From the sequence record PZ502562.2: a stretch of 38,725 bases of DNA; one strand, given 5' to 3'. The notes below the pieces were generated by a model. The model was not told the DNA's origin and made no database searches. It saw only the letters and a program-made list of their open reading frames with translations. This document shows, one piece after another, positions 7,404 to 8,230 of the stretch (the stretch's first letter is position 1; every line of letters starts with the position of its first letter). The position numbers and the translations under genes are program-made. Source of the DNA: a phage.

Positions 7404-7664
7404 ATGTTTCGACTTCATTTCAACAAAAGCATTAAGAATTTCACAGTTCGCCGTGCTGACCGTTCAATCGTATGTGCGAGCGAGCGCCGAGCTAAGTTAC
7501 CTCCTATTGGTGACACAGTCCCCTTGGCACCGAGCGTCCACATCATTATCACTCGTGGTGACTTCGAGAAAGCAATAGACAAGAAACGTCCGGTTCTTAG
7601 CGTGGCAGTGACCCGCTTCCCGTTCGTCCGTCTGTTACTCAAACGAATCAAGGAGGTGTTCTGA
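7404..7664 (+). CDS. 1.6: Gene 1.6 protein
   Basis: 86 aa, [33 protein letters not shown]..., near-identical to T7 gp1.6. Confidence 0.9.
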
Positions 7665-8230
7665 TGATTGTTGTACTTAATGGCCCCGCTGGTTGCGGAA
7701 AGGATACAATAGCTAACCGTATTCTTGAGGTATCCAGTGTATTCAAGAAGGCCGAGATGAAAGCTCCTATGTGGGAAATAGCTAATGCGACTTTGGGTAG
7801 TAACTTCGAGAAGTTCGTAGAGCTATACAACGACAGGGCTACCAAAGAGAAACCTTGCGATATGTTGGGTGGACTTTCACCACGCAACTTCTTTATTCAT
7901 ATCTCTGAGAAGTGGTGTAAGCCTCTATTCGGAGACACTTACTTTGGAGAGCGTATGCTGCAAACAGCCATCTCCAACAAACATCACGAAACCATTCTGT
8001 CAGATGGTGGTTTCTCTGTGGAACTGATGCCAGCACTTGCCGCTGGGGAGACAATTATGTTGGTTCGTTTACATCGTGAGGGTTATACGTTCGATGGAGA
8101 TAGTCGGTCGTACATACACATCGAGCACAAGAACTGCTGGCCTCTGGATGTGAAACTAGAAGATGGTAAAATTGACGAAGCCGTTGAGGGGATTTTAGAT
8201 GCCTACCACACACTACTTAAAGCCGTCTGA
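7664..8230 (+). CDS. P-loop nucleotide/nucleoside monophosphate kinase-like protein at the gene 1.7 position
   Basis: 188 aa; canonical Walker A GPAGCGKDT at residues 7-15 after a hydrophobic strand (MIVVLNG), typical of phage dNMP kinases; ATG overlaps the 1.6 stop (TGATG). Confidence 0.75.
   Translation: MIVVLNGPAGCGKDTIANRILEVSSVFKKAEMKAPMWEIANATLGSNFEKFVELYNDRATKEKPCDMLGGLSPRNFFIHISEKWCKPLFGDTYFGERMLQTAISNKHHETILSDGGFSVELMPALAAGETIMLVRLHREGYTFDGDSRSYIHIEHKNCWPLDVKLEDGKIDEAVEGILDAYHTLLKAV

Follow-up and report, generated by a model that had tools for sequence, protein, structure and literature searches.

A nucleotide kinase is encoded by gene 1.7 of phage T7, which lies between genes 1.6 and 1.8. 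At the corresponding place in another T7-like phage, a first-pass annotation had described a 188-aa open reading frame (ORF) with a Walker A motif and proposed that it was a non-orthologous replacement. This locus raised the question of whether the ORF was a diverged gene 1.7 or an unrelated gene in its place, and what its product does. The window analysed here was the whole stretch of 38,725 nucleotides in sequence record PZ502562.2, and coordinates refer to it unless another sequence is named.

The gene between 1.6 and 1.8

The window was a T7-like genome with eleven T7-consensus promoters. The gene order was ligase (6196-7218), gene 1.6 (7404-7664), the kinase ORF (7664-8230), gene 1.8 (8199-8333), and gp2 and gp2.5 (8594-9295). 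The features on the left side of the locus were as follows.

7256..7278, plus strand: phi1.5-like T7 RNA polymerase promoter (predicted), TAATACGACTCACTATAGGAGAT; sequence read, position matching phi1.5 in the annotated T7 record
7376..7398, plus strand: phi1.6-like T7 RNA polymerase promoter (predicted), TAATACGACTCACTAAAGGAGAC; sequence read, in the place of T7 phi1.6 just 5' of gene 1.6
7404..7664, plus strand: gene 1.6, 86 aa, the conserved left flank; sequence read and comparison
7664..8230, plus strand: gene for a protein of the P-loop (d)NMP-kinase fold; ATG start, 188 aa

The ORF was found as first described, with an ATG start at 7664 and a P-loop at 7682-7708. The TGATG overlap with gene 1.6 was also confirmed, the TGA of gene 1.6 (7662-7664) overlapping the kinase ATG (7664-7666). 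The Shine-Dalgarno sequence of the kinase, AAGGAGGT at 7650-7657, was located six bases 5' of the ATG, inside the last 15 nt of gene 1.6. The sequence upstream of the ORF (...CAAACGAATCAAGGAGGTGTTCTGATG) was the same in the window, T7, Escherichia phage EG1 and Shigella phage ESh6, and gene 1.6 of the window had 94-97% nucleotide identity to that of Serratia phage Pila, Salmonella phage C2, EG1 and T7. The gp1.6 protein, whose function is unknown in T7, matched Pfam PF06726 'Bladder cancer-related protein BC10' above the curated cut-off (E 8e-21), an odd family for a phage class II protein.

On sequence evidence, the ORF at 7664-8230 is a real gene and not a chance ORF, because it had homologues to E 2e-119 and dN/dS values of 0.06-0.14. 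The ratio was 0.11-0.14 for the pairs with Pila and C2 and 0.06 for the pair with a metagenomic homologue of 81% identity, and by these values the kinase is evidently under purifying selection.

The phi1.5-like promoter was the first class II promoter 5' of the block formed by 1.6, the kinase and 1.8. The next T7-type promoter after the phi1.6-like site was at 8527, and a search for terminator-like sites from the phi1.6-like promoter to 8800 gave none. These promoter positions and the lack of an intervening terminator-like site thus placed the kinase among the class II, DNA-metabolism genes, like T7 gene 1.7. Both promoter-like sites are predicted to be functional by their match to the consensus. 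A scan for sigma-70 promoters and terminators around the kinase gene gave nothing beyond chance. The gene 1.5 position, bounded by the two class II promoters, was occupied by a 30-aa hydrophobic ORF (MMYLLPLLIIIIGCLALHFKDDNDMPDGHA, 7286-7378), and ESh6 had an annotated ORF of equal length there. The window was without an equivalent of gene 1.4 in the interval from the early terminator to the first promoter.

Comparison with T7 gp1.7

A full-length alignment to T7 gp1.7, which the first-pass annotation had named as the sign of simple orthology, was not obtained, since BLASTP of the ORF against T7 gp1.7 and EG1 gp1.7 gave E-values of 28 and 0.5. The same annotation had referred to T7 gp1.7 as a kinase described as being without recognisable nucleotide-binding motifs. 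This was correct: T7 gp1.7 matched only Pfam DUF3310 (PF11753) and PHROG 2585, and no Walker A motif was found in it by regular-expression search. In the window ORF, Pfam gave no match to DUF3310 (PF11753), and the invariant HY...SMT...GN.LKY motifs of a DUF3310 alignment of five sequences (alignment A2) were absent. To look for a relocated gp1.7, the T7 protein and a DUF3310-only protein were used as tblastn queries, and no match was present in the window or in the complete genomes of Pila and of Proteus phage Pm5460.

The two genes had in common the slot between 1.6 and 1.8, the TGATG coupling, the promoters, the expression class and the presumed role of converting dNMP to dNDP, but their products were without sequence or domain similarity. 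T7 gp1.7 reportedly works on dTMP and dGMP without divalent cations, as cited in PMC7693777. The probability that the ORF is merely a diverged orthologue of T7 gp1.7 was considered to be vanishingly small. The shared position was the only point in favour of such a reading, while the proteins did not align, differed in domain and family, and were encoded within flanking DNA of 92-97% identity that gave way to an ORF body without detectable similarity. Moreover, a true gp1.7 relic adjoined the kinase in a metagenomic contig (L012, see below). Orthology to gp1.7 was refuted by BLASTP, by BLASTN of the flanks versus the ORF body, and by the Pfam difference.

Family and fold of the protein

The protein began with a strand that led into a Walker A loop of the pattern GxxxxGKD[T], as in the T4-type dNMP kinase (Dnk; PDB 1DEK). 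The motif itself was G7-PAGCGKDT-15, encoded at 7682-7708. In the family alignment (alignment A1, 59 homologues of the ORF), N6, P8, G12, K13, D14, R74, I78, S81, K86, P87, E120, D146 and S147 were invariant, and K61, E82, D114, G116, F117, R138 and R148 were nearly invariant. The groups conserved in the family were R74, S81/E82, K86, D114-G-G-F117, E120, R138 and D146-S-R148.

The ORF product matched PHROG 139 'deoxynucleoside monophosphate kinase' (E 2.6e-37, profile positions 84-263), and T4 gp1 matched the same part of this profile (E 1.2e-64, positions 84-261). A direct comparison of the A1 profile with T4 gp1 by hhalign gave a probability of 95.5% and an E-value of 1.4e-8 over 172 aligned columns (query 1-181, T4 1-237). 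An AlphaFold2 model made from the alignment had a pLDDT of 96.4 and a pTM of 0.88, and its top fold match was 1DEK. The second-best structural matches were phosphomevalonate kinases (3CH4 and 7XND), which came as a near-tie with score and coverage below those of 1DEK. Thus, the description of the ORF product as a canonical Walker A kinase of the T4 type was upheld by PHROG 139, by hhalign and by the fold match. The ORF encodes a P-loop kinase that is conserved and under selection, with T4 gp1 as its closest characterised relative, and the protein would act as a dNMP kinase.

The Pfam DNMK model (PF21448) did not match the window ORF even at E<=1, whereas T4 gp1 itself scored 357.9 bits, and so we placed the kinase in a short subfamily of its own within the T4-Dnk-like clade rather than among the Pfam DNMK members. 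Across Pfam and NCBIfam, nothing was above the cut-offs and the sub-threshold matches were to P-loops only. A single-protein sequence search of the PDB was uninformative, as it returned P-loop matches only (AAA+ proteins and guanylate kinase), and a plain HMM search against PDB sequences found 1DEK at E 7.7e-4 through the P-loop region only.

T4 gp1 (PDB 1DEK; PF21448; PHROG 139) was about 15% identical to the window kinase and longer, with 241 aa versus 188 aa. About 50 extra residues were inserted between its helices that bind the acceptor, and the window kinase lacked them. According to the T4 record, T4 gp1 acts on dTMP, dGMP and hm-dCMP, whereas the dNMP kinase role of the window protein is a prediction. 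For the animal-type phosphomevalonate kinases (3CH4, 7XND), no sequence-family link to the window kinase was found in Pfam or PHROG.

Junctions of the exchange

The junctions were located by local BLASTN and by base-by-base comparison, and the following features were used.

7667..8213, plus strand: DNA foreign relative to ordinary T7-like phages (EG1, ESh6, T7); local BLASTN and base-by-base junctions
8199..8333, plus strand: gene 1.8 homologue, 44 aa; aligns to EG1 gp1.8 and to a chimeric ORF of contig L012
8214..8230, plus strand: right-hand junction, TACTTAAAGCCGTCTGA; matches the kinase 3' end (contig L012) and the 5' part of 1.8 (ESh6)

The foreign DNA at 7667-8213 stood in for the body of the DUF3310-type gene 1.7. 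In local BLASTN, homology to EG1, ESh6 and T7 stopped at 7666-7667, directly after the ATG, and began again at 8216-8219 in the case of EG1 and ESh6, but at 8318 only in the case of T7, because the T7 gene 1.8 is divergent. Since homology stopped after the ATG and resumed at the 1.8 start, the swap was ORF-for-ORF. Together with the non-homology to gp1.7, these junctions supported the first-pass proposal of a non-orthologous replacement at the same locus, and the sameness of function that was part of the proposal is presumed.

The right-hand junction (8214-8230) contained the kinase stop codon. Here the two parental sequences were identical at 13/16 positions, and therefore the crossover was placed somewhere inside 8214-8230 and no finer. 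A purely 1.8-derived origin of the final 12 nt of the ORF with its stop codon was rejected on the grounds that the L012 kinase ended with nearly the same sequence. GC content was uninformative (45.5% in the kinase versus 47.3-47.6% in the flanks).

The 1.8 homologue overlapped the kinase 3' end by 32 nt, and the same ORF was annotated in phage C2. The ancestral 1.8 ATG, as in EG1, aligned to TAC at window position 8214. The predicted start codon of the window gene 1.8 is the ATG at 8199, which lay five codons upstream in kinase-derived DNA and was preceded by GAGGGG at 8186-8191. Accordingly, of the earlier statement that the overlapping 1.8 start had been preserved, the overlap held true but the start codon was not the ancestral one. 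The first five codons of 1.8 were kinase-derived DNA in another frame, the part from codon 6 to 8230 was indistinguishable from the kinase 3' end, and unambiguous conserved 1.8 began at 8231.

Alleles of the slot in T7-like phages

We found three alleles of the 1.7 slot with identical left junctions: the T7 type of 180-196 aa, a DUF3310-only protein of 78 aa in ESh6, and the P-loop kinase of 188 aa. The ESh6 protein was encoded at 2165-2401 of the ESh6 sequence (L004), and its occurrence shows that a natural phage can do without the Cys-rich N-terminal half of T7 gp1.7. Its ORF ended ...LKAV*, reading into the 1.8 start like the window kinase.

The P-loop kinase was present in five deposited phages, namely Serratia phage Pila, Salmonella phages C2 and PSP2-22, and Yersinia phages vB_YenP_WX1 and WX2. 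All five had T7-like (Studiervirinae) genomes with kinase proteins of 96-97% identity at the same locus, labelled 'AAA-ATPase' or 'hypothetical protein'. Thus, the exact arrangement had already been deposited, with the kinase gene mislabelled. The Pila genome paper was silent on the kinase gene (PMC6940308), and no paper describing the swap was found in the literature searched, a search whose coverage excluded most subscription journals. The exact protein of the window was not in a collection of 15 billion sequences. In Pila (L001, 2909-2988) the gp1.8 homologue was unannotated, and the allele of the 1.8 region (…EWCERMF…) differed from the one in the window and C2.

The P-loop allele was rarer than the T7 type (~5/~300 related records). 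The kinase was 97% identical at the nucleotide level among the window, Pila and C2, whose backbones differed by ~8-10%, and the backbone closest to the window was that of EG1 (92% over 23 kb), which carried the T7-type allele. Therefore, recombination in the conserved flanks carries the allele from one T7-like phage to another.

A more distant kinase homologue (P0002, 81% identical) was found on the short metagenomic contigs L012 and L013 of a more distant T7-like phage. L012 was continuous with the window across gene 1.6 and the kinase (79% nucleotide identity overall, 84.5% in 1.6 and 75.7% in the kinase) and also had the TGATG coupling. At 1218-1397 of this contig (Logan DRR771904), 3' of the kinase and after the kinase's own stop codon and a Shine-Dalgarno sequence, there was a 59-aa ORF. 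Residues 3-18 of its product matched residues 21-36 of T7 gp1.7 (CWACIEGDNRYEHTC vs CIACLEKDDRYPHTC, E 1e-6) and residues 29-58 matched gp1.8, making it a fusion of the Cys motif from the gp1.7 N-terminus with gp1.8. Judged by these matches, this ORF is what is left of the displaced gene, next to the gene that replaced it. It carried a precomputed Pfam label, DUF8272, and our own hmmscan gave no match.

Relatives outside the T7-like phages and a second locus

The kinase family was widespread, with 1458 phage records (tblastn, E<=1e-3) that included T1-like, SP6-like, N4-like and rV5-like phages and were often annotated as dNMP kinase. The closest relatives outside the T7-like phages were kinases of equal length and 60-67% amino acid identity from Molineuxvirinae, namely Proteus phage Pm5460 (Acadevirus) and Klebsiella Ulipvirus phages. 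They were labelled 'deoxynucleoside monophosphate kinase' in the Pm5460 RefSeq record and in some Klebsiella phage GenBank records. Their genes were located after a metallophosphoesterase gene and directly 5' of DNA ligase, and not between 1.6 and 1.8. It was likely that these kinases represent the donor lineage. Pm5460 and Koku themselves were rejected as the actual donor, having only 66-69% nucleotide identity.

The Vectrevirus phages fTuEco01 and 6949 (L014 / L015; Molineuxvirinae) had a DUF3310 protein in the same slot between phosphoesterase and ligase, and its C-terminal domain was 49-64% identical to T7 gp1.7 over 73-112 aligned residues. The flanks of this second locus were orthologous between Vectrevirus (L014 / L015) and Acadevirus and Ulipvirus (L005 / L006), with 76-83% amino acid identity for the phosphoesterase and 72-82% for the ligase. 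DNA homology broke at the kinase ATG (fTuEco01 3874 versus Koku 4003) and resumed at the ligase start. These breaks between Vectrevirus and Acadevirus/Ulipvirus therefore indicated that the same exchange had happened in a different syntenic context. Aeromonas Studiervirinae have also been reported with a dNMP kinase gene adjoining the ligase (PMC10974468).

We also scanned 160 viral contigs for joint occurrence of the two kinase types, covering 10 kb on either side and hence part of each genome only. No DUF3310/gp1.7 relative was found within +/-10 kb of the P-loop kinase (0/80 contigs, 1.35 Mb), and no P-loop family member within +/-10 kb in the contigs with a gp1.7 relative (0/80, 1.34 Mb). 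This non-co-occurrence within 10 kb backed displacement and was supportive but not conclusive.

Possible explanations

The explanation that we considered probable was that a T4-Dnk-like P-loop kinase has displaced the non-orthologous DUF3310 kinase and does the same job, the conversion of dNMPs to dNDPs. It draws on the gene itself and its non-homology to gp1.7, on family and fold, purifying selection, junctions and relic, and on the second locus and the non-co-occurrence within 10 kb. Its substrate, the roles of the catalytic residues and the physiological equivalence to gp1.7 are presumed. Phage RNA polymerase would read the gene from the phi1.5- and phi1.6-like promoters, and its translation would depend on the Shine-Dalgarno sequence within the 3' end of gene 1.6. 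Its product would be a small phosphotransferase with a P-loop and the NMP-kinase fold, and it would probably need Mg2+. The donor phosphates of the NTP may be bound by the Walker A loop (G7-T15, with K13) and the dNMP acceptor by the helical insert of residues 34-104 (R58, R74, E82, K86), and the active site may be completed by D114, where strand 3 ends, together with the lid (R138, D146-S147-R148). The dNDP product would then be converted to dNTP by the host Ndk, so that dNMPs from degraded host DNA could feed phage replication. In evolutionary terms, the gene 1.7 kinase would have been exchanged ORF-for-ORF between the conserved 1.6 and 1.8, and later spread among T7-like phages would have proceeded by homologous recombination in the 1.6/1.8 flanks.

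A small but appreciable chance was left to the main rival, a P-loop kinase of the same fold with an acceptor other than dNMP, which took a free slot and did not replace the gp1.7 function. Ribonucleotides, a host-defence signalling nucleotide or a phosphorylated metabolite, as in phosphomevalonate kinase, would be candidate acceptors. The place of phosphomevalonate kinases right behind 1DEK among the structural matches agreed with this, as did the unmatched Pfam DNMK model, the annotation of a homologue in Klebsiella phage Roth32 as 'phosphomevalonate kinase', and the fact that the subfamily was without a characterised member. However, T4 gp1 was the best match by every method used, and in all genomes inspected the kinase was located among DNA-metabolism genes (ligase, polynucleotide kinase, exonuclease). 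It also alternated with a proven dTMP/dGMP kinase type at two independent loci, with no joint occurrence within 10 kb. To our knowledge, a mevalonate pathway does not belong to the metabolism of these enterobacterial hosts, and it would not fit plausibly into the biology of this phage, which is a further point against such an acceptor. An AAA+ ATPase, as annotated in Pila, had practically no probability. The Pila record stated 'AAA-ATPase, confirmed with interproscan', and Pfam AAA-type models and PDB AAA+ proteins gave weak matches to residues 3-40. This reading was effectively refuted, since only residues 3-40 matched, below the cut-offs, and the fold matches were NMP-kinase-type enzymes.

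Why the swap is selected is a separate matter. One candidate cause is immune evasion, in which gp1.7 is sensed by host defences and an unrelated kinase keeps the nucleotide supply and loses the trigger; we gave it a slim chance. T7 gp1.7 was reported to activate the EfAvs5 SIR2-STAND NADase defence on co-expression (PMC11897194). T7 mutants escaping retron Ec48 carried gp1.7 Y128C together with gp5.9 L23P (bioRxiv 10.1101/2020.06.21.156273), and Y128 was invariant in our five-sequence alignment A2. The polymorphism of the 1.7 locus, with its three alleles, and the rarity of the P-loop allele also fitted evasion. On the other hand, the trigger in the retron study was gp5.9 and not gp1.7 (bioRxiv 10.1101/2020.06.21.156273), and the P-loop allele was without an experimental tie to any defence system. 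Moreover, immune evasion concerns selection and not mechanism, and it is compatible with the displacement explanation. In a broader form, to which we gave a fairly slim chance, DUF3310- and P-loop-type dNMP kinases would be interchangeable Autographiviridae cassettes at fixed slots (the 1.6-1.8 interval in Studiervirinae, the phosphoesterase-ligase interval in Molineuxvirinae), with repeated swaps driven by escape from gp1.7 sensors such as Avs5. If this were true, the 1.7 slot would be a defence/counter-defence hotspot and not a neutral polymorphism.

Significance

The present case is a clean example of non-orthologous gene displacement and not a new type of system, and the understanding of these phages is unchanged by it. 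It makes a modest point of comparative genomics, namely a recurrent and precise exchange at two loci. It also corrects the labels 'AAA-ATPase' and 'hypothetical protein' for the same gene in the five deposited phages. T7-like phages that differ mainly in kinase type provide a natural control for dideoxythymidine sensitivity and for gp1.7-triggered defences (EfAvs5). Finally, the evidence for the physiological role of T7 gp1.7 had come chiefly from biochemistry, as laboratory growth does not require the gene. Its precise natural replacement at two loci by an enzyme of the classical dNMP-kinase type, with no joint occurrence within 10 kb, gives independent comparative support that dNMP phosphorylation is what is selected in this slot.
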